Shown: piece after piece, positions 24,761-51,430 of the stretch | How the letters are laid out: each line of letters starts with the position of its first letter | Position numbering within the stretch: the stretch's first letter is position 1 | Source: a virus | Taxonomy: Duplodnaviria; Heunggongvirae; Uroviricota; Caudoviricetes | IMG/VR virus record: IMGVR_UViG_2684622670_000009 | Location: 20,476-84,475 of that record | DNA length: 64,000 bases | Direction: 5' to 3' (one strand) | Notes under the pieces: model-generated | Told to the model about the DNA's origin: nothing | Databases searched by the model: none | The model's input: only the letters and a program-made list of their open reading frames with translations | Translations under genes and position numbers: made by a program

Positions 24761-24836
24761 TGGTGACCCCTACCGGACTTGAACCGGTGACCGTGCGATT
24801 ATGAGTCGCCAGCTCTAACCACTGAGCTAAAGGGCC
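24761..24836 (-). tRNA. trnI: tRNA-Ile2 type (anticodon CAU, ileX-like)
   Basis: GGCCCTTTAGCTCAGTGGTTAGAGCTGGCGACTCATAATCGCACGGTCACCGGTTCAAGTCCGGTAGGGGTCACCA. Full cloverleaf, encoded CCA, close to E. coli ileX. Confidence 0.85.
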
Positions 24837-25545: not shown

Positions 25546-25694
25546 TGGTTATCCCTCAATAAAAGTGACATATTTATTAGATTGCGGTGCCGGGTGCCTC
25601 CCGGTGACGTTAACCAGTTAACAATTAACGCCGGAATGTTTAATCATCAAGGAGGATTGTTTTAACTGTTCCGCGTGCGCTTAGCCGAATTCAC

Positions 25695-25806
25695 CGCAAT
25701 GGTAAGAGCACTTGGCTGGCTGGGCGGCGATGACGCCTGTACGCATTTGGTGATCCGGTTCTGCTTCCGGCATTCGCTTAATTAGCCAAATACTCTTAAC
25801 GTTGCG
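25695..25806 (-). repeat. Long-hairpin module D (degenerate copy), immediately 3' of tRNA-Ser
   Basis: 5' arm CGCAACGTTAAGAGTATTTGG pairs with 3' arm CCAAGTGCTCTTACCATTGCG. The arms are homologous to modules A-C. An internal CCGG-AAGCAGAA-CCGG hairpin is present. Confidence 0.45.
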
Positions 25807-26485: not shown

Positions 26486-26561
26486 TGGCGATGGTGGGTG
26501 GATTCGAACCACCGACCAGTTAGTTAACAGCCAACTGCTCTAACCGCTGAGCTACACCATC
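26486..26561 (-). tRNA. trnA: tRNA-Asn (anticodon GUU)
   Basis: GATGGTGTAGCTCAGCGGTTAGAGCAGTTGGCTGTTAACTAACTGGTCGGTGGTTCGAATCCACCCACCATCGCCA. Perfect cloverleaf. Confidence 0.9.
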
Positions 26562-45489: not shown

Positions 45490-46005
45490 TTAAAATCGGT
45501 AACCGACACCAAGCATCCAAATGCTATTGCTTAGATCACCTGGTTTAGAACGTTCATACGAGAGATCAACTGCAAACTGCGGAGCTGGGTTAAATTGAAG
45601 CCCAAGTCCATAAGCAAAATCGGTTCCAAAGCCAGCATATGACTGTCCATTCAGTTTTGCTGTTGCATCCGCATGGCTTAAACCCACCAAGCCGTATGCA
45701 CTCATTAATTCATTGAATCTGTATGACGGACCAAAAGTAAATGAGGCATACTCAACCTTGGCTTTGGCGGCATTCCATAGGTTTGTGTTTGACTTTTCGT
45801 AAGTGACCGAAGCTAATCCACCCCACGTAGAATCCATTTCGTAGCGATATTTAATATTCACGCCTTTTGGATCTTTTATATCTCCGCCTTTAACCGTTGC
45901 GCTTCCTTGGGCAAAGTCTAAGGAGAGTGTGTGCTGATATGCGGAGGCAGTCCCAGCAACCCCCAAGGCACATGCCAGAAGGGCCGTTAAAACTACTTTT
46001 TTCAT
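45490..46005 (-). CDS. Ail/Lom/OmpX-family 8-stranded outer-membrane beta-barrel protein
   Basis: 171 aa. Signal peptide MKKVVLTALLACALGVAGTASA, alternating aromatic beta-strand pattern, and the C-terminal signature LGVGYRF. Confidence 0.75.
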   Translation of the reverse strand: MKKVVLTALLACALGVAGTASAYQHTLSLDFAQGSATVKGGDIKDPKGVNIKYRYEMDSTWGGLASVTYEKSNTNLWNAAKAKVEYASFTFGPSYRFNELMSAYGLVGLSHADATAKLNGQSYAGFGTDFAYGLGLQFNPAPQFAVDLSYERSKPGDLSNSIWMLGVGYRF

Positions 46006-46972: not shown

Positions 46973-47773
46973 TTAGCGCGTTGCCGCGACAGGTACCAGC
47001 ACACCAGCATCAAGCAATCGCTTCATCAGCCACTGCTGACCTTTGCCGGTTATACGAGTCGTGAAAGAAATCCTGCTTCCATTGCTTGTATCGATCACGG
47101 TTTCTTTGAGAGTGAAATACCCACGGGATATGTATTCTTGTTTGGGAACGTTCCTGCGTTCACCAGTTGCGATCAGAATTCCGTTATCACGCAACCAGGT
47201 GAAGAGATAGTTTTGGCCCAGGCCGAGAACTTTGGCATAGTTGCCGATTAGAACCCCGCTGGCGGTAGCAACGCGTTCGGCGAATTCGACTTTAGGAGCA
47301 TCCATAAGCATTTTTTGCTCCAGCCGTTGCTTTTGCTCTGCCAGGTCGGCAGCCAAACGGAGAGCTTCAGGGAGACTCTGCGGAATAGCAGGTTGTAATC
47401 TTCCGGCTCGATAGTCGATAAATGTCTGGTTTACCTTCAGCCGAAACGCGGGAGAAATCCAGCCTGCGTACTCCACAGCGAGCAATTCATGGGCAAAAGT
47501 GCCGCCGCCACGGCCCTCGAACGAAACTATGCAATTCTGCATCGTTTCTTTTTCAAGCTCTTCAATGAGCTGTTTGGCTGATTGCGTTCTTAGCCATTGA
47601 GCTGGCGCTTTATGGGCACCGAGTCCGCTCGCTCTGTGTAGAGCATTAAGGTTGTAACGGCCAGCGCGGTCGGTCGTAATTTCAACACCACAAATAACAG
47701 GCAGAGTGGTTGAAGGATCGACATTTTGATGAAGGTTTGATATATTCATATCCGCATTGAATGTTTGTTGCAT
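46973..47773 (-). CDS. kilA: KilA (KilA-N domain plus ANT/KilAC C-terminal domain)
   Basis: 266 aa. KilA-N pattern GRYNLNALHRASGLGAHKAPAQWLR. The C-terminal half is homologous to the Ant C-terminus. Confidence 0.85.
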   Translation of the reverse strand: MQQTFNADMNISNLHQNVDPSTTLPVICGVEITTDRAGRYNLNALHRASGLGAHKAPAQWLRTQSAKQLIEELEKETMQNCIVSFEGRGGGTFAHELLAVEYAGWISPAFRLKVNQTFIDYRAGRLQPAIPQSLPEALRLAADLAEQKQRLEQKMLMDAPKVEFAERVATASGVLIGNYAKVLGLGQNYLFTWLRDNGILIATGERRNVPKQEYISRGYFTLKETVIDTSNGSRISFTTRITGKGQQWLMKRLLDAGVLVPVAATR

Positions 47774-47842
47774 TTTTTCTCCAAATTTGCATCAACCTTC
47801 AATCACCAGCTCGAAATGGTGATTCTTTGCACTTAGAAAACG

Positions 47843-47859
47843 AAATTTATTAGAGCAAA
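47843..47859 (-). promoter_or_regulatory. C1 operator (Op53 position) controlling kilA-repL
   Basis: Minus strand TTTGCTCTAATAAATTT (16/17). Confidence 0.7.
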
Positions 47860-47901
47860 TTTTCTGACTCGATCCAGATCGGGTTGGTCGATCTGCTCAG
47901 A

Positions 47902-47930
47902 AACCTGCCAGTTCGCTGGCAGGTTTTTTT
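47902..47930 (+). terminator. Plus-strand terminator, candidate end of the antisense (P53as-type) RNA
   Basis: AACCTGCCAG-TTCG-CTGGCAGGTT followed by TTTTT. P1 is known to make an antisense RNA of about 180 nt against the P53 transcript. Confidence 0.6.
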
Positions 47931-47973
47931 GTATAAGGCGTTTTTCAATGTGGATTTGTGGCTGGCTAAAACG

Positions 47974-48002
47974 AAAAAGGCCACAGGTTTTACCCTGTGG
48001 CC
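47974..48002 (-). terminator. Minus-strand terminator after the small hydrophobic ORF
   Basis: Minus strand GGCCACAGG-GTAAAA-CCTGTGGCC followed by TTTTT. Confidence 0.7.
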
Positions 48003-48056
48003 TGTTCGGGCGCAACGCGCTGCTGTTACACTGCGAACTAACGCCCTTCAATGTTG

Positions 48057-48173
48057 TTATGCAATGTGGAGAAGTGAGGCAATCACTGATGCCAACACAG
48101 AACTTGAAGCTCCGATGATGACAGGAACAATGATGTTGGTCACAATCCACTTGCAAGCTTTTTGAAGAGTCAT
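48057..48173 (-). CDS. 38-codon hydrophobic ORF (candidate small membrane toxin/peptide)
   Basis: MTLQKACKWIVTNIIVPVIIGASSSVLASVIASLLHIA. GGAG lies 9 nt upstream and the ORF has its own terminator. Below the ORF-track cut-off. Confidence 0.4.
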   Translation of the reverse strand: MTLQKACKWIVTNIIVPVIIGASSSVLASVIASLLHIA

Positions 48174-48243
48174 TACGAAGCTCCGCATACTTGCAACAGC
48201 AACTGCTTGCGGCTATCCTCTTGTTGTTCAGACATAAGGAATG

Positions 48244-48287
48244 CCCTCGCTGGTTGCCTCCATGCAACGTTGTAGCGAGGGTTTTTT
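48244..48287 (+). terminator. Plus-strand terminator facing the 5' UTR of the small ORF
   Basis: CCCTCGCT...AGCGAGGG (with inner GTTGC/GCAAC) followed by TTTTTT. Confidence 0.6.
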
Positions 48288-48411
48288 CTGTCTGGAGGCT
48301 ACGCATCCAGGAGTTCATAACCCCCGCATAACGTTGCGCCTCCCCTGAAAAACAGGGTTGGGCATATCGTACACATGCCTGTAATTTATGGCAAATCCTG
48401 GTCTGAATACG

Positions 48412-49461
48412 TTAAGACAAGGACGCCACTGGTTTTAACAAACCAGCATCAAGTAGCTTGCGAGTTAACCACTGCTGGCCTTTACCCGTTAATTGGGGCG
48501 TCAGCCGTATCTGGTAGCCATTTTCATCATCCAGCCCCACTTCTTTCACCGTGAAATACCCGGCGTTGATGTACTGTTGGCGCGGTACGTTTTTGCGCGC
48601 ACCAAAAGCCATGAGAATGCCGTTCTGGCGCAACCATGAGAAAAGGGCGTTTTGCTTAAGTCCAACGACCTTTGCAAAGTTCCCGATCAGGATTCCATTG
48701 GCCACTGATACCCGGTCGGCAAAATCGACTTTAGGGGCTGCGGCCACCAGCTGTTGTTCCAACTGCATTTTCTGTTCTGCTAACTCGGCAGCCAGGCGTA
48801 GGGCTTCTGGTAATGTCTGGGGGATCGATGGGGTAGGGGAGTTTGCCTGCTGTAATTCTTCCAGTTTGTCGATCAGCGAACGGCGGACCGCTTTCGATTC
48901 GCGAGCAGCAACGCGCAGGGCTTGTTTGTATGTCATTACTATAACTACCTGATCCGCTCCACCTTTTTTCTTATCCATAGGGGTTACGAAGATTTCGTAA
49001 CCCTCCCCATCAAGCTCATCCTTAACTCTGGCAATGAAATCATTGTTGCGAACTGGTTTTTCGCTACATAATTTCCGTGCCTCATTGACCATCTTTAACA
49101 GTGTCAGGCTGTCGATTGTGTCTCCGGTGTTGGGGATAATATTCACGGCTGGTGCTGGCGTAGCTGACGTAACAGGTGCTGGTTTTTCAACATTCAAATT
49201 ATTACCGGTCATTCTATGTGCCTCCTTTCTCATTTCTGCTGCCACTGTTGCGTAACGTAGACGTCCTTGTTCAATCAAATAATCCCTGATCTCGGCTATC
49301 AGTAGCCTGTTGATCACAGCCTTATCTGTTCGGGTATAAAAACGCCTGGTTATCATGAAATAGTTAGCAATTGCGCTGGGGATCTCCCGTGTCGGCATAC
49401 AGGCAGTATGCAGGGCGATCGCTTCGGCTATGTCATTACGGGTGACGAGAGGTTTTTTCAT
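48412..49461 (-). CDS. ant1: Antirepressor Ant1 (Ant2 from an internal in-frame start)
   Basis: 349 aa immediately after icd. The C-terminal ANT/KilAC domain PQTLPEALRLAAELAEQK...FADRVSVANGILIGNFAKV is present. Confidence 0.85.
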   Translation of the reverse strand: MKKPLVTRNDIAEAIALHTACMPTREIPSAIANYFMITRRFYTRTDKAVINRLLIAEIRDYLIEQGRLRYATVAAEMRKEAHRMTGNNLNVEKPAPVTSATPAPAVNIIPNTGDTIDSLTLLKMVNEARKLCSEKPVRNNDFIARVKDELDGEGYEIFVTPMDKKKGGADQVVIVMTYKQALRVAARESKAVRRSLIDKLEELQQANSPTPSIPQTLPEALRLAAELAEQKMQLEQQLVAAAPKVDFADRVSVANGILIGNFAKVVGLKQNALFSWLRQNGILMAFGARKNVPRQQYINAGYFTVKEVGLDDENGYQIRLTPQLTGKGQQWLTRKLLDAGLLKPVASLS

Positions 49462-49679: not shown

Positions 49680-49729
49680 AGTTACGGCCTCATTCGTAGG
49701 TTTAACAACCTGCGCCCCGCTGCTAAACG

Positions 49730-49806
49730 GGTGGCAGGACGTGACGGGGTTAGCAGACTGGCACGAATGAAACCAGCAGGCCGAAGCCTCCCCATCACGC
49801 CCCACC
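49730..49806 (-). ncRNA. c4: c4 antisense repressor RNA (immI)
   Basis: 10-bp closing stem CGTGATGGGG/CCCCGTCACG and an AGGC-TTCG-GCCT hairpin. The loops carry CATTCGT and CTGCTAA. These are complementary to the direct repeats GTTTAGCAG...ACGAATG found both upstream (~49872-49900) and downstream (~49685-49730). Confidence 0.6.
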
Positions 49807-49993
49807 ATAATTCGGGCGTAACGTGGTTTTACGGACACAAAAATACCGCAATATCGGATATCTGCGGTTGTCCGCATTCGTATTCAGGCTGCTAAACCCG
49901 GTCGCAGAATTTGCTACGACGGCGGAACTATAAGCCTGAACGATTAAAAGGTCAATATGATGCGAAAAGATAGCATTCGCGACTTAAAAATAC

Positions 49994-50092: not shown

Positions 50093-51430
50093 GCGCCTTA
50101 TATCCCCGTCCTTCAGGGCGGGGATATAAGGCGCGGTTTTCCACCTAACTGTTTTTGTTTAAAATAGTGGGATGAAACGACTACAAGCATTTAAATTCCA
50201 GTTAAGACCAGATGGTCAACAGGAGCGTCAAATGAGGCGCTTTGCCGGTGCTTGTCGTTTCGTTTTCAACCGTGCTCTGGCGCTTCAGAATGAGAATCAT
50301 GAGGCCGGTAAAAAATACATCCCTTACACGAAAATGGCTTCCTGGCTGGTTGAATGGAAAAATGCTACTGAAACGCAATGGCTTAAAGATTCGCCATCAC
50401 AGTCATTGCAGCAGTCACTGAAAGACCTTGAGCGGGCTTACAAAAACTTTTTCCAGAATCGGGCTGCTTTTCCCCGATTCAAAAAGCGGGGACAGAATGA
50501 TGCATTCCGCTACCCGCAGGGCGTTAAGCTCGATCAGGAAAACAGCCGTATTTTTCTGCCGAAACTTGGCTGGATGCGCTACCGGAATAGCCGTCAGGTC
50601 ACGGGTGTTGTGAAAAATGTCACTGTCAGCCAGTCCTGCGGTAAGTGGTACATCAGTATTCAGACAGAAAGAGAGGTATCCGCTCCTGTTCACCCTTCTG
50701 CATCAATGGTCGGACTGGATGCTGGTGTGGCTAAACTCGCCACGCTGTCAGATGGCACAGTCTTTGAACCTGTAAATAGTTTTCAGAAAAACCAGAAGAA
50801 GCTGGCGAGACTTCAGCGACAGTTAAGCCGCAAGGTCAAATTCAGCAACAACTGGCAGAAGCAGAAACGCAAAATACAGCGACTGCATTTTCGTATCGCA
50901 AATATCCGCAGAGACTACCTTCATAAAGTCACAACGATCATCAGCAAAAACCACGCAATGATTGTCATTGAGGATTTGAAGGTTAAAAACATGGCAAAGT
51001 CAGCAGCGGGTACGGTCAGCCAGCCGGGGCGCAATGTCTGGACAAAATCAGGTTTAAACCGTTCGATACTGGATCAGGGCTGGTATGAAATGCGCCGCCA
51101 GCTTGAGTATAAGCAGCTCTGGCATGGCGGTCAGGTACTGGCAGTGCCGCCAGCGTACACAAGCCAGCGTTGCGCGTGCTGTGGTCATACCGCGAAAGAA
51201 AATCGCCTGTCACAAAGTAAATTCAGATGCCAGGTATGTGGATATACAGCGAACGCCGATGTAAATGGCGCTCGTAACATTTTAGCGGCGGGGCACGCCG
51301 TTCTTGCCTGTGGAGGGATGGTGCAGTCAGGCCGCCCGTTGAAGCAGGAACCAACCGAAATGATTCAGGCGATAGCCTGAACGTAGCAGGAATCCACGCC
51401 CGTCAGGGTGCGGAGGATGTCAAAAGGCAG
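50093..51430 (+). mobile_element. IS200/IS605-family element remnant carrying only tnpB (ends approximate)
   Basis: Perfect 15-bp stem hairpin GCGCCTTATATCCCC/GGGGATATAAGGCGC (50093-50134) upstream of tnpB. An imperfect hairpin (CACGCCC-GTCA-GGGTGCG) lies about 30 nt after the stop. No tnpA is present. Confidence 0.6.
50172..51380 (+). CDS. tnpB: TnpB (RuvC-like RNA-guided nuclease, OrfB zinc ribbon)
   Basis: 402 aa. [13 protein letters not shown]...GLDAGV (RuvC-I), [10 protein letters not shown] (RuvC-II), CACCGH...[18 protein letters not shown] (Zn ribbon plus RuvC-III). Confidence 0.9.

Follow-up and report, generated by a model that had tools for sequence, protein, structure and literature searches.

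The window, the 64,000-nucleotide stretch of DNA analyzed here, belongs to a P7-like plasmid-prophage and carries, between ant and kilA, an unannotated insert of about 0.5 kb. On sequence grounds this insert is a divergent relative of the E. coli chromosomal ldr/rdl locus, and we consider it probable that it forms a self-contained type I toxin-antitoxin module of the LDR family, the family represented in K-12 by ldrA-D/rdlA-D (Kawano et al. 2002, cited in PMC2887945, PMC4147584). An earlier sequence-only reading of this DNA had suggested a locus resembling type I toxin-antitoxin systems such as hok/sok, ldr/rdl or tisB/istR; our results support this proposal and narrow it to an ldr/rdl homolog. 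An nhmmer profile built on 99 LDR units of other genomes, window-type copies left out, matched 48358-47964 at E = 8.1e-33, and the match persisted at E = 2.6e-21 with the scan motif used for collecting masked. MAFFT alignment with K-12 LDR-A to LDR-D revealed conserved blocks along the entire unit, and the global alignment score against LDR-D lay 15.7 sd over shuffles. These comparisons show the unit to be homologous to LDR units over its full length with all recognisable parts kept: both promoters, the 5' hairpin, the closing helix, the pairing of the start region with the 3' UTR, the leader start and the terminators. Searches of E. coli genomes and phage DNA with the module yielded no intermediate relatives. 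The features of the locus are as follows.

47931-48424, minus strand: whole inserted module, delimited by junction comparison with P7 (AF503408)
48394-48389 and 48371-48366, minus strand: predicted toxin mRNA promoter from a consensus scan, -35 TTGCCA and -10 TACGAT with a 17-nt spacer
48343-48357, minus strand: 5'-terminal stem-loop CCCUG-UUUUU-CAGGG in the minimum free energy (MFE) fold
48335-48342, minus strand: 5' closing element GAGGCGCA, predicted to pair with UGCGCCC at 48014-48008 and so close the mRNA
48173-48235, minus strand: leader ORF of 20 codons (MSEQQEDSRKQLLLQVCGAS), ATG 48235-48233, stop UAA 48175-48173
48173 (ATG) to 48059-48057 (stop), minus strand: toxin-like ORF of 38 aa, its start aligned with the ldr start codon
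48008-48056, minus strand: 3' UTR, with a block pairing with the toxin start region and the closing element UGCGCCC (48014-48008)
47967-48003, minus strand: intrinsic terminator of the toxin mRNA, also ending ant read-through
48191-48196 and 48214-48219, plus strand: predicted, family-conserved antisense (Rdl-like) promoter, -35 TTGCAA and -10 TATCCT with a 17-nt spacer
48226-48290, plus strand: predicted Rdl-like antisense RNA of about 62-65 nt, from promoter, Rfam match and terminator
47833-48318, minus strand: 161-aa ORF, not a gene (no Pfam match; crosses regulatory elements)

The location between ant and kilA, as first read from the sequence, was borne out by the identity of the flanking genes: one neighbor encodes an Ant antirepressor of 349 aa with 98.8% identity to P7 Ant1, and the other encodes KilA. 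Comparison with P7 AF503408 revealed a clean insertion in which about 20 bp (the last 3-4 ant codons plus CAAAAG) were swapped for the module, which is bounded by ant on one side and by the P53as (PaskilA) terminator on the other. No phage match was found for 47931-48411, even in a distant search mode; matches to P1-family phage records were restricted to 47774-47930. Of the 22 phage records with a match to the neighboring P53 region, P1 and P7 included, none contains the module. Conservation of the ant-kilA interval in P1 and P7 had been suggested as a check on the locus, and the module is entirely missing in both; this absence marks an accessory insertion and is not a refutation of the locus. 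The long overlapping frame of 161 aa had been judged implausible, and we agree: it runs across the mRNA terminator, the P53as terminator and the PkilA/Op53 promoter/operator region, and its first codons occupy the site of a variable-length upstream ORF in other LDR 5' UTRs.

The hydrophobic 38-codon minus-strand ORF (48173-48057) was present as previously described. Its Shine-Dalgarno sequence and start had been given as GGAG-N9-ATG; both GGAG (48184-48181) and ATG are there, but the spacer is 7 nt rather than 9. The encoded peptide, MTLQKACKWIVTNIIVPVIIGASSSVLASVIASLLHIA, is predicted to form a single hydrophobic helix (GRAVY 1.44). It shares with Ldr the MTL start and, in register, P17 and G21, its P17-V-I-I-G21 lying within the predicted helix in the same register as P17-V-I-A-G21 of LdrD. 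This PxxxG motif sits within the transmembrane helix of Fst and Lpt and is essential in both (Weaver 2020, PMC7472228). A 43-aa reading from the ATG at 48188 was rejected, given that this codon is GTG in five of seven window-type copies and that the ldr start codon aligns with 48173, not 48188. By contrast with the 35-aa K-12 peptides, the window peptide has 38 aa and lacks the FWHDLAAP core, the post-helix Trp and the basic tail. Neither Pfam Ldr_toxin (PF13940) nor any NCBIfam model matched it at E values up to 10, whereas LdrD scored 93.7 bits in the same PF13940 search. Scans against the rest of Pfam and against PADLOC gave no match either, and a word-indexed protein search retrieved one near-identical partial protein and nothing else. 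The Ldr/Fst signature consists of a Trp following the helix and then a charged C-terminus (Fozo 2010, PMC2887945). This signature is missing from the window peptide, whose sole Trp (W9) lies ahead of the helix and whose C-terminus (..IASLLHIA) has no charged residue in its last eight positions. The charged tail is required for the toxicity of Lpt, although Fst was still toxic with its tail truncated (Weaver 2020, PMC7472228). The loss of the Trp and the basic C-terminal tail, together with the failed Ldr_toxin match, favors an alternative that we consider improbable overall, namely that the locus encodes a non-poisonous, antisense-regulated small membrane protein (for example in superinfection exclusion, lysis timing or membrane-protein regulation) for which the LDR RNA chassis has been reused only for tight control. 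Against this reading stands PxxxG, the motif essential in Fst/Lpt, which is present in two of three class-3 peptides, the class comprising the window peptide and two relatives (as PTIVG in P0002, but replaced by QIAIG in a Pantoea copy).

Having compared the coding sequence, we analyzed the predicted toxin mRNA. The -10 element of its promoter aligns with TAGAAT/TAGTAT of the K-12 LDR-D and LDR-A units, and from the sequence we infer a transcription start near 48359. The predicted mRNA folds at -162.4 kcal/mol, compared with -118.7 +/- 4.7 kcal/mol for shuffled sequences (z = -9.2). A stem with differing sequences occupies the position of the 5' stem-loop across the family alignment; its covariation was read by eye and uncounted, and the consensus fold did not call it. 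In the consensus fold, 20-21 of the 21 family members retain the pairs of the 5'-3' closing helix, and the pairing recurs in the MFE structure of the window mRNA itself and in 19 of 21 MFE folds computed independently. In the MFE fold of the window, the toxin start region (26 nt, -14 to +12) has 20 nt paired to the 3' UTR; this region also pairs with the 3' UTR in most of 21 relatives when these are folded independently. MAFFT misaligned the window near the start codon as well as the class-3 antisense 3' halves, so some of the consensus-fold pair counts understate conservation. The 5' hairpin, the GGCGCA/UGCGCC closing helix, the pairing of start region and 3' UTR and both terminators are all features of the K-12 LDR units. 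Given this closed fold, the full-length RNA should be translationally silent.

A minus-strand terminator had been placed after the ORF at 48002-47974, and we found it as a stem-loop at 48003-47978 followed by UUUUUCGUUUU (-24.0 kcal/mol, z = -5.8 against shuffles). Its stem covaries across the family, from GGCCGCAGG/CCUGCGGCC to GGCCACAGG/CCUGUGGCC. Compensatory changes are found in both terminators, including the path C-G, U.G, U-A, which is tolerated on the antisense strand only. In P7 and P1 the P53as hairpin alone, with a U-run that is poor in the ant direction, lies between ant and PkilA. The strength of the 48003-47978 terminator and this arrangement in P7 and P1 would suit a role in transcriptional insulation, in which the terminator keeps c4-icd-ant transcripts out of the C1-controlled kilA-repL lytic replicon and the ORF is incidental. 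We regard this as extremely improbable: about 40 bp suffices for a terminator, whereas the unit comprises 490 bp with two promoters and a conserved ORF, and it recurs in unrelated contexts.

On the opposite strand, the antisense promoter and start point, TTG(C/T)(A/C)A-17-TAT(C/T)CT, are kept in all 21 family representatives, and the promoter pattern is also kept in the class-3 loci L091 and L095. As in K-12, a TTGCAA-17-TATYCT promoter lies opposite the 5' UTR, clear of the toxin ribosome-binding site. The predicted start, G48226, is 7 nt past the -10, a distance equal to that of the annotated K-12 rdlD start. Another plus-strand promoter-like site (48118-48146), detected by consensus scan, was dropped, as the conserved 48191-48219 promoter fits the K-12 rdlD start. 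The RNA, predicted at 62-65 nt compared with 64 nt in K-12, would consist of a 17-nt single-stranded 5' tail, a terminator hairpin (48243-48281) and U6 (48282-48287), with a fold of -25.8 kcal/mol (z = -4.1). A strong plus-strand terminator in the 5' UTR of the ORF, earlier placed at 48244-48287, is thus present at 48243-48287; at -25.8 kcal/mol (z = -3.75) it was matched by none of 200 shuffles, and a simple terminator scanner missed it because the stem is long and interrupted. Its complement lacks a U-run on the minus strand, so it terminates plus-strand transcription only. All positions (1-66 of 66) of the Rfam rdlD model (RF01813) align at 48226-48287, the place syntenic with rdlD, with a score of 21.1 bits (E 0.07-0.17) that is below the gathering score of 50. 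Weak Rfam matches to sok and fstAT were treated as noise; that to sok (RF01794) reached 16.8 bits, where the gathering score is 59.

The antisense RNA had been expected to cross the ORF or its ribosome-binding region. We found instead that it overlaps neither: 48226-48287 lies wholly within the 5' UTR, upstream of the toxin ATG and over the leader ORF start region, with 53 nt from the antisense 5' end to the toxin ATG (49 nt in ldrD/rdlD). Its predicted pairing energy was -127 kcal/mol with its own target and -48 to -54 kcal/mol with K-12 ldr mRNAs. These models predict poor pairing with the K-12 mRNAs, so chromosomal Rdl should not neutralise the module. The window antisense RNA thus differs from its K-12 counterparts both in its sub-threshold Rfam score and in the lack of predicted cross-pairing with K-12 ldr mRNAs.

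The leader ORF is preceded by a Shine-Dalgarno sequence, GAGGG (48248-48244), with a spacer of 8 nt, and its stop codon shares one A with the toxin AUG (UAAUG). Both the leader Shine-Dalgarno sequence and the leader AUG fall within the antisense duplex. The leader start codon lies immediately 3' of the hairpin, as in K-12, but is ATG here and TTG there. The leader is not uniform in the family: a start at the same position (TTG, ATG or GTG) opens a coupled 20-codon ORF in 19 of 91 LDR units, K-12 LDR-A/B/C included, and an in-frame extension in 42, while 30 units have no leader ORF at that position. Read by eye, the start is ATG in L091 and GTG in L095, and in both the leader overlaps the toxin ORF out of frame. 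We rejected as the leader an upstream ORF that begins within the 5' element and reads MLRGLDPRRH.. in most LDRs: its length ranges from 0 to 87 codons, the closest relative (L020) has none, and only MRGL* is left of it in the window. Leader coupling is unconfirmed for ldr itself (Wen & Fozo 2014, PMC4147584). With its natural ATG leader and UAAUG overlap, the module offers a cleaner system than K-12 ldr for testing this leader-ORF (ldrX) coupling.

By analogy with ldrD/rdlD and hok/sok, we propose that an mRNA of about 385 nt (371-373 nt in K-12, predicted start to terminator) would run from near 48359 to the 47978 terminator and fold closed, 5' end with 3' end and peptide start region with 3' UTR. 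Ribosomes would reach the toxin start only by translating the 20-codon leader through the UAAUG overlap. An antisense RNA of about 62 nt, made constitutively, would pair with the leader Shine-Dalgarno sequence and AUG and so block the leader and hence the toxin. The peptide, putatively a single membrane helix with the Ldr/Fst PxxxG, would be predicted to harm the inner membrane once produced. Should the mRNA be longer-lived than the antisense RNA, as it is in ldrD/rdlD, loss of the plasmid-prophage would kill or arrest the cell, and the module would act as an addiction (post-segregational killing) function beside phd/doc of P1. P1-type elements carry phd/doc for addiction, which favors a non-poisonous membrane protein, as does the position of the module: it follows ant immediately and no terminator separates the two, so immunity-operon induction should transcribe through it. 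Yet mRNA closure, start-region occlusion, leader coupling and antisense control have all been kept and have co-evolved with the changed coding sequence, and such elaborate silencing is hard to explain if the product is harmless. A relative on a 4.5-kb ColE1-type plasmid without phage functions also speaks against that alternative. Against an addiction role in the toxin-antitoxin reading that we prefer, chromosomal ldrD/rdlD is reportedly without post-segregational killing (Coray 2017, PMC5367252).

In outline the module also resembles hok/sok of plasmid R1, with its stable folded mRNA, 5'-3' closure and occluded toxin start, its leader-dependent translation (mok) and antisense RNA aimed at the leader start, and its small membrane toxin with a plasmid addiction role (PMC4147584, PMC5367252). 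The out-of-frame leader/toxin overlap in L091 and L095 is likewise as in mok. By contrast, there is no sequence relationship, the peptide being unrelated to the Hok of about 50 aa, and Pfam gave no Hok/Gef match for it. With Fst/RNA II (par of pAD1) and the Fst/Ldr superfamily the module shares PxxxG in a single transmembrane helix and plasmid carriage, but the Fst antisense RNA lies at the gene 3' end (PMC2887945) and the charged C-terminus is missing in the window peptide. An SOS-type locus (tisB/istR, dinQ/agrB, symE/symR) was rejected on the lack of a LexA box at the toxin promoter: none (CTGT-N8-ACAG, at most one mismatch) was found within 47931-48424, and matches across the whole window equaled chance expectation.

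In PLSDB, 21 of about 510 P1-like plasmids (about 4%) carry a window-type module, as do six IMG/VR contigs, and none of the records examined annotates it. Many other PLSDB "plasmid" Ldr matches were discarded as chromosome fragments, such as L081 with kdsA and prfA. Window-type copies, among them that of E. albertii NZ_CP117656.1 with 100% identity over the module, share 98.5-100% identity, which makes their retention a poor guide to selection; within the lineage the ORF changes are one synonymous change and I10V, and no others. Four plasmids carry an IS-disrupted copy, and in one the adjacent ant was lost to IS1; in all disrupted alleles seen, loss of the antisense promoter went together with separation of the toxin from its own promoter, a pattern that favors the toxin-antitoxin reading. 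The near-identity of the copies, their presence in about 4% of P1-like plasmids only and these disruptions would fit an inert relic, a recombination-captured LDR unit hitch-hiking unexpressed and unselected in one young P1-like lineage. That explanation is very unlikely in our judgment: all functional elements are intact, the 3' UTR still fits the changed start region, the few ORF changes are those given above, and the ORF has kept the length of a 53%-identical relative with dN/dS of about 0.3.

Two class-3 relatives share the RNA scaffold, one on a Pantoea plasmid (4.5 kb, ColE1-type, without phage functions) and one on a primase/resolvase element. Each is about 53% identical to the window peptide (20/38) and the two share 22/38 with each other, all three peptides being equal in length. 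The LDR profile detects them at E = 5e-32 and 9e-27; neither was gathered through the LDR scan motif, which L091 does not match. Pairwise dN/dS among class-3 sequences was 0.27-0.34 with dS at least 1, values that come from three short sequences also constrained by RNA structure. A metagenome scan with a class-3 motif returned window-type copies only.

The reviews consulted describe ldr/rdl as chromosome-only, vertically inherited and without plasmid homologs (PMC2887945, PMC5367252, PMC7472228). The module, about 0.5 kb like the K-12 units, differs from them in its phage-plasmid carriage, and the presence of ldr/rdl RNA machinery on this phage-plasmid, as well as on a small mobilizable plasmid and other mobile DNA, means that this supposedly chromosome-only family is also mobile. 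A more speculative proposal, which we think doubtful, is that the window peptide and its two relatives define a mobile-element LDR clade, a new toxin class without the Ldr/Fst C-terminal signature on a conserved chassis, with toxin release linked to ant. If so, the clade would be direct evidence for horizontal ldr/rdl movement, against the chromosome-only, no-transfer picture. In that case derepressing the immunity operon could produce toxin-sense RNA in great excess and titrate the antisense RNA, and toxin release could be tied to prophage induction or superinfection, which would suggest abortive infection or lysis timing rather than plain addiction. P1-like phage-plasmids spread resistance genes (PMC9600943), and how well they persist or can be cured could depend in part on a second, hidden module for addiction or exclusion.

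Across the family the regulatory RNA scaffold is conserved better than the toxin, with at least three peptide classes on one scaffold; such a scaffold is useful for studying the evolution of type I systems and which peptide features toxicity needs. Class-2 LDR units, for which the literature searched held no description, encode 30-aa peptides, MTF(K/R)EAL..AVVTS.IGP..V.L..HFF.., and were found on Kluyvera, Atlantibacter, Scandinavium, Lelliottia and Pseudescherichia chromosomes and on two plasmids. They are the nearest DNA relatives of the window unit (78-80% over aligned columns), and their peptides likewise lack the basic tail and fail Pfam Ldr_toxin, but they differ in having 30 aa with GPxxV where the window peptide has 38 aa with PxxxG. 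Their leader peptides are similar to that of the window, MSRQQQDSREQLPLQ.. compared with MSEQQEDSRKQLLLQ...

The 38-aa ORF in the ~0.5-kb insert between ant and kilA (47931-48424, hereafter the module) had been assigned, in a sequence-only reading, to a type I toxin-antitoxin-like locus with a minus-strand terminator 3′ of the ORF and a plus-strand terminator within its 5′ UTR. Both terminators are present, and the assignment is right in kind. A profile of 99 units of the E. coli ldr/rdl type I locus (LDR units), built without any near-identical copy of the module (window-type sequence), matches 48358-47964 with 107.9 bits (E = 8.1e-33), and rdlD, the antitoxin RNA of ldrD, aligns end to end at 48226-48287 (+) in a relaxed Rfam scan, with 21.1 bits against a gathering score of 50 (E 0.07-0.17). 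The distance between GGAG and ATG, previously given as 9 nt, is corrected to 7 nt.

Predicted parts of the module
48394-48366, minus strand: predicted toxin mRNA promoter, TTGCCA-17-TACGAT; the -10 aligns with the K-12 units
~48359, minus strand: toxin mRNA start, placed from the promoter
48357-48343, minus strand: mRNA 5′ stem-loop, from folding; relatives have a stem at the same position (by eye)
48342-48335, minus strand: 5′ closing element GAGGCGCA, pairing with UGCGCCC 48014-48008; kept in 20-21 of 21 representatives
48235-48173, minus strand: leader ORF of 20 codons, MSEQQEDSRKQLLLQVCGAS, from ATG 48235
48184-48181, minus strand: toxin Shine-Dalgarno GGAG, 7 nt 5′ of ATG
48173-48057, minus strand: toxin ORF, ATG 48173 to stop 48059-48057, encoding MTLQKACKWIVTNIIVPVIIGASSSVLASVIASLLHIA
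48003-47967, minus strand: toxin mRNA intrinsic terminator, stem-loop 48003-47978 then UUUUUCGUUUU; -24.0 kcal/mol, z = -5.8
48191-48219, plus strand: antisense promoter TTGCAA-17-TATCCT; conserved in 21 of 21 representatives
48226 to ~48287-48290, plus strand: predicted antisense RNA, starting 7 nt past the -10, as does annotated K-12 rdlD
48243-48281, plus strand: antisense terminator hairpin in the toxin 5′ UTR, then T6; -25.8 kcal/mol, equalled by 0 of 200 shuffles

Since its reverse complement lacks a U-run, the hairpin at 48243-48281 terminates plus-strand transcription only. The predicted antisense RNA consists of an open 5′ tail of 17 nt and this hairpin.

Alignment of the module with the four K-12 LDR units revealed conserved blocks spread over the entire unit. 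Close to the 5′ end lies GAGGCGCAAYGTT..GCGGGGG; the other blocks are the antisense terminator's complement, ATAGCCGC..GTTG (complementary to the antisense -10 and -35), ATGAC at the start of the toxin ORF, GGGCGTYAG and TGCGCCCGRA in the 3′ UTR, and the mRNA terminator. The alignment score against LDR-D lies 15.7 sd over shuffles. Scanning a single genome of each species with a motif detected 69 loci with ~100 LDR units, 99 of which went into the profile, hosted by Escherichia, Shigella, Salmonella, Citrobacter, Kluyvera, Klebsiella, Pseudocitrobacter, Atlantibacter, Scandinavium, Lelliottia, and Pseudescherichia. Because the motif used to collect these loci also occurs in the window, the profile was rebuilt without the motif region as a control; this motif-free profile matches 48270-47964 with E = 2.6e-21. 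At the level of sequence, these comparisons show that the module is homologous to LDR units, with all their recognisable parts conserved.

The predicted 387-nt mRNA has a folding energy of -162.4 kcal/mol, compared with -118.7 ± 4.7 for shuffles (z = -9.2). The two ends pair with each other, the 5′-3′ closing helix being found in the window mRNA's own MFE fold as well, and of the 26 nt between -14 and +12 at the toxin start, 20 are base-paired to the 3′ UTR. When 21 family representatives were folded independently, the 5′ element paired with the 3′ UTR in 19, and the toxin start region did so in most. Given that the window CDS and 3′ UTR differ from those of other units, the persistence of the start/3′ UTR pairing indicates that both regions changed together. 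Compensatory changes are found in the mRNA terminator stem (GGCCGCAGG/CCUGCGGCC to GGCCACAGG/CCUGUGGCC) and in the antisense hairpin (GCCCCCG/CGGGGGC to GCCCUCG/CGAGGGC); the U.G intermediate of the latter, a legal pair on the antisense strand only, is seen in Kluyvera and in L091, a locus encoding a relative of the window peptide.

The leader ORF is the key link of the module's anatomy. Its start, GAGGG-N8-ATG, lies in mRNA sequence that is complementary to two parts of the antisense RNA, the tail and the hairpin's 3′ arm, and its stop UAA shares one A with the toxin AUG (UAAUG). Of 91 LDR units compared for a start codon at this position (TTG for the most part), 19, with K-12 LDR-A, B, and C included, have a 20-codon ORF that terminates at the toxin AUG, 42 have an in-frame toxin extension, and 30 have no ORF there. 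In L091 and L095, the loci of the two relatives of the window peptide, the antisense promoter is kept and the leader starts at the same place, with ATG and GTG, respectively (sequences read by eye); both leaders extend into the toxin ORF in another reading frame, an overlap like that of mok with hok in hok/sok. Most LDR 5′ UTRs carry an additional upstream ORF of 25-87 codons, which starts inside the conserved 5′ element (GGUGAGG-N-AUG; MLRGLDPRRHRLLERENPRTL..; columns 26-60 of the family alignment A2) and in some units runs across the toxin ORF. In the window this ORF (48329-48315) has shrunk to MRGL and a stop that shares bases with the ATG opening the spurious 161-aa ORF (UUAUGA), and the Atlantibacter locus L020 has no upstream ORF in the 5′ element.

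The window peptide has MTL, P17, and G21 at the same positions as LdrA and LdrD, but is 3 residues longer, has a GRAVY of 1.44 versus ~0.7, and lacks the Ldr Trp and basic tail. Pfam Ldr_toxin, with which LdrD scores 93.7 bits, does not detect it. The LDR scaffold hosts at least three peptide classes.

Peptide classes on the LDR scaffold
Class 1, 35 aa: classical Ldr
Class 2, 30 aa: MTF(K/R)EAL..AVVTS.IGP..V.L..HFF.., without basic tail; units are the window's nearest DNA relatives (78-80%)
Class 3, 38 aa: window peptide

Class 2, apparently an undescribed peptide class, is missed by Pfam Ldr_toxin. Its chromosomal loci (L009, L020, L026, L027, L034, L035, L037, L049, L059, L071, and L075) span Kluyvera, Atlantibacter, Scandinavium, Lelliottia, and Pseudescherichia, with frequent tandem copies. 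Its two plasmid copies (L080:5001-5345 and L082:4001-4270) carry no annotation; one neighbours ccdAB on a plasmid of Lelliottia, and the other, which IS3 truncates, lies on a conjugative plasmid of Klebsiella aerogenes. Many further "plasmid" Ldr matches were rejected as mislabelled chromosome fragments.

For class 3, phmmer run in full against 1.84 billion representative proteins detected one diverged relative, P0002 (MMLLKACKWIVTTVIVPTIVGVAGSMIASILLAHFHLA, 38 aa, 53% identity), on contigs that hold a phage-type primase, a resolvase, and IS1. Its ORF lies within an LDR unit (L091; profile E = 5e-32), though the collecting motif is not matched there. A DNA search with this unit identified a third member on p33.1_4, a 4.46-kb ColE1-type mobilizable plasmid of Pantoea agglomerans (L095; LDR profile E = 9e-27), where the peptide MMFVNACKWIGNIILQIAIGVAGSVLASVILAHFHLA is not annotated. 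The three ORFs give pairwise dN/dS values of 0.27-0.34 (dS 1.0-1.5). A 16-nt stretch, GCTTGCAAGTGGATTG (ACKWI codons; window 48143-48158, minus strand; L091:5014-5029; L095:1874-1889), is invariant in all three genes though dS elsewhere is ≥1, and holds the palindrome CTTGCAAG and a TTGCAA hexamer on the other strand, which points to a possible RNA or DNA constraint beyond coding.

The window is a plasmid-prophage of the P1/P7 kind, and its minus-strand gene order here is icd, ant, the module interval, the P53/Op53/P53as control region, kilA, and repL. Rfam located two immunity elements upstream of the module.

Immunity I elements
49727-49812, minus strand: C4 antisense RNA of the P1/P7 immunity I operon, 71.9 bits
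49881-49933, minus strand: a1/b1 target element of the immunity I operon, 56.2 bits

Both exceed their gathering scores, confirming the immI context upstream of icd-ant, and the window Ant (349 aa) is 98.8% identical to P7 Ant1 across residues 1-346. Conservation of the module in P1/P7, raised by the sequence-only reading, did not hold: P1-family phage records match the interval only at 47774-47930, and 47931-48411 had no match in the phage collection, low-stringency search included. In a base-by-base comparison, similarity to P7 is lost ~4 codons before the ant stop (~48424-48427) and regained at the P53as terminator (47930), so that ~490 bp of the window stand in for ~20 bp of P7. A plus-strand promoter-like site at 47718-47746 was rejected as the source of the RNA ending at 48287, being P1 PaskilA (P53as), whose RNA stops at the hairpin 47900-47930. 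As no ant-direction terminator separates ant from the module, immunity-operon transcripts should traverse the toxin region up to the 47978 terminator, and such ant read-through could link toxin release to prophage induction.

Occurrence of window-type copies
PLSDB plasmids: 21 with the module (98.9-100% identity; 13 E. albertii, 7 E. coli, 1 Salmonella)
PLSDB plasmids with the adjacent kilA/P53 region: ~510, module in ~4%
Complete E. coli genomes: 10 of 5,426
IMG/VR contigs: 6
Metagenome contigs: 3

Annotation was inspected for six window-type records, and the toxin ORF is missing from it in every one. Across seven copies compared, this ORF varies by one synonymous change and one I10V, and the in-frame ATG at 48188 upstream of the toxin start is GTG in five. 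In four plasmids, an IS insertion plus a 36-bp deletion (48192 to ~48227) removes the antisense promoter and simultaneously severs the toxin ORF from its promoter and leader. Such joint loss fits, suggestively, with loss of the antisense RNA alone being lethal.

By analogy with ldrD/rdlD and hok/sok (PMC4147584), the full-length mRNA would be closed and silent, toxin translation would depend on the leader, the antisense RNA would block the leader start, the peptide would be toxic to the membrane, and the module would act in addiction. The predicted duplex energy of the window antisense RNA is -127 kcal/mol with its own mRNA and -48 to -54 with K-12 ldrA and ldrD, compared with -94 to -97 for K-12 D versus A; these modelled values suggest that the module may be insulated from the host's own ldr/rdl copies. 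In 2010, Fozo et al. (PMC2887945) stated that no homology of ldr-rdl to plasmid sequences had been reported, and that type I loci evolve through duplications specific to a lineage and not through transfer. Ldr has been placed among chromosome-specific type I systems, restricted to one bacterial family, and Ldr-RdlD noted as failing to show post-segregational killing (Coray et al., 2017, PMC5367252), and the Ldr subfamily, with a defined PxxxG motif, has been located in Escherichia, Shigella, and Salmonella (Weaver, 2020, PMC7472228). We found no prior description of ldr/rdl on a phage-plasmid or P1-like element in the part of the literature that was searched. The finding is real and the mechanism familiar; it is worth an experiment for its location on mobile elements, for the swap of toxin classes while the RNA chassis is conserved, and for its leader, which has a natural ATG and the UAAUG overlap.

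Elsewhere in the window, a 402-aa ORF (50172-51380, plus strand) just beyond the c4/immunity region encodes a TnpB-type protein (IS200/IS605 family) whose best PADLOC matches are Cas12f and Cas12u4 (E ~1e-88). Two tRNA genes lie at 24764-24836 and 26489-26561 (both minus strand), and the sRNA family STnc100 matches partially at 25583-25698 (minus strand; 50.3 bits, GA 47, model positions 31-147 of 206). After repL, the window carries an Ail/Lom-family outer-membrane protein gene (45490-46005, minus strand) where phage P1 has rlfA/rlfB; E. albertii plasmids L002 and L003 and the E. coli ST2747 record L077 share this arrangement. In L077 (NZ_CP007393.1, 2222904-2235384), the module, repL, kilA, ant (annotated longer, 1392 bp), and icd are recorded within the chromosome and adjoin lambdoid tail genes (gpJ, Lom), which reflects an assembly join or else a phage-plasmid that is integrated or chimeric. 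In L078 (NZ_CP104510.1), IS1A replaces ant as far as the predicted toxin promoter's -35 (~48394 upward), leaving an intact module with toxin I10V. The window-type plasmid of E. coli HB-Coli0 (NZ_CP020936.1) also has hokD, annotated as a type I toxin gene (L001:534-689), ~2.3 kb from the module, past repL, and thus has two type I systems close together.
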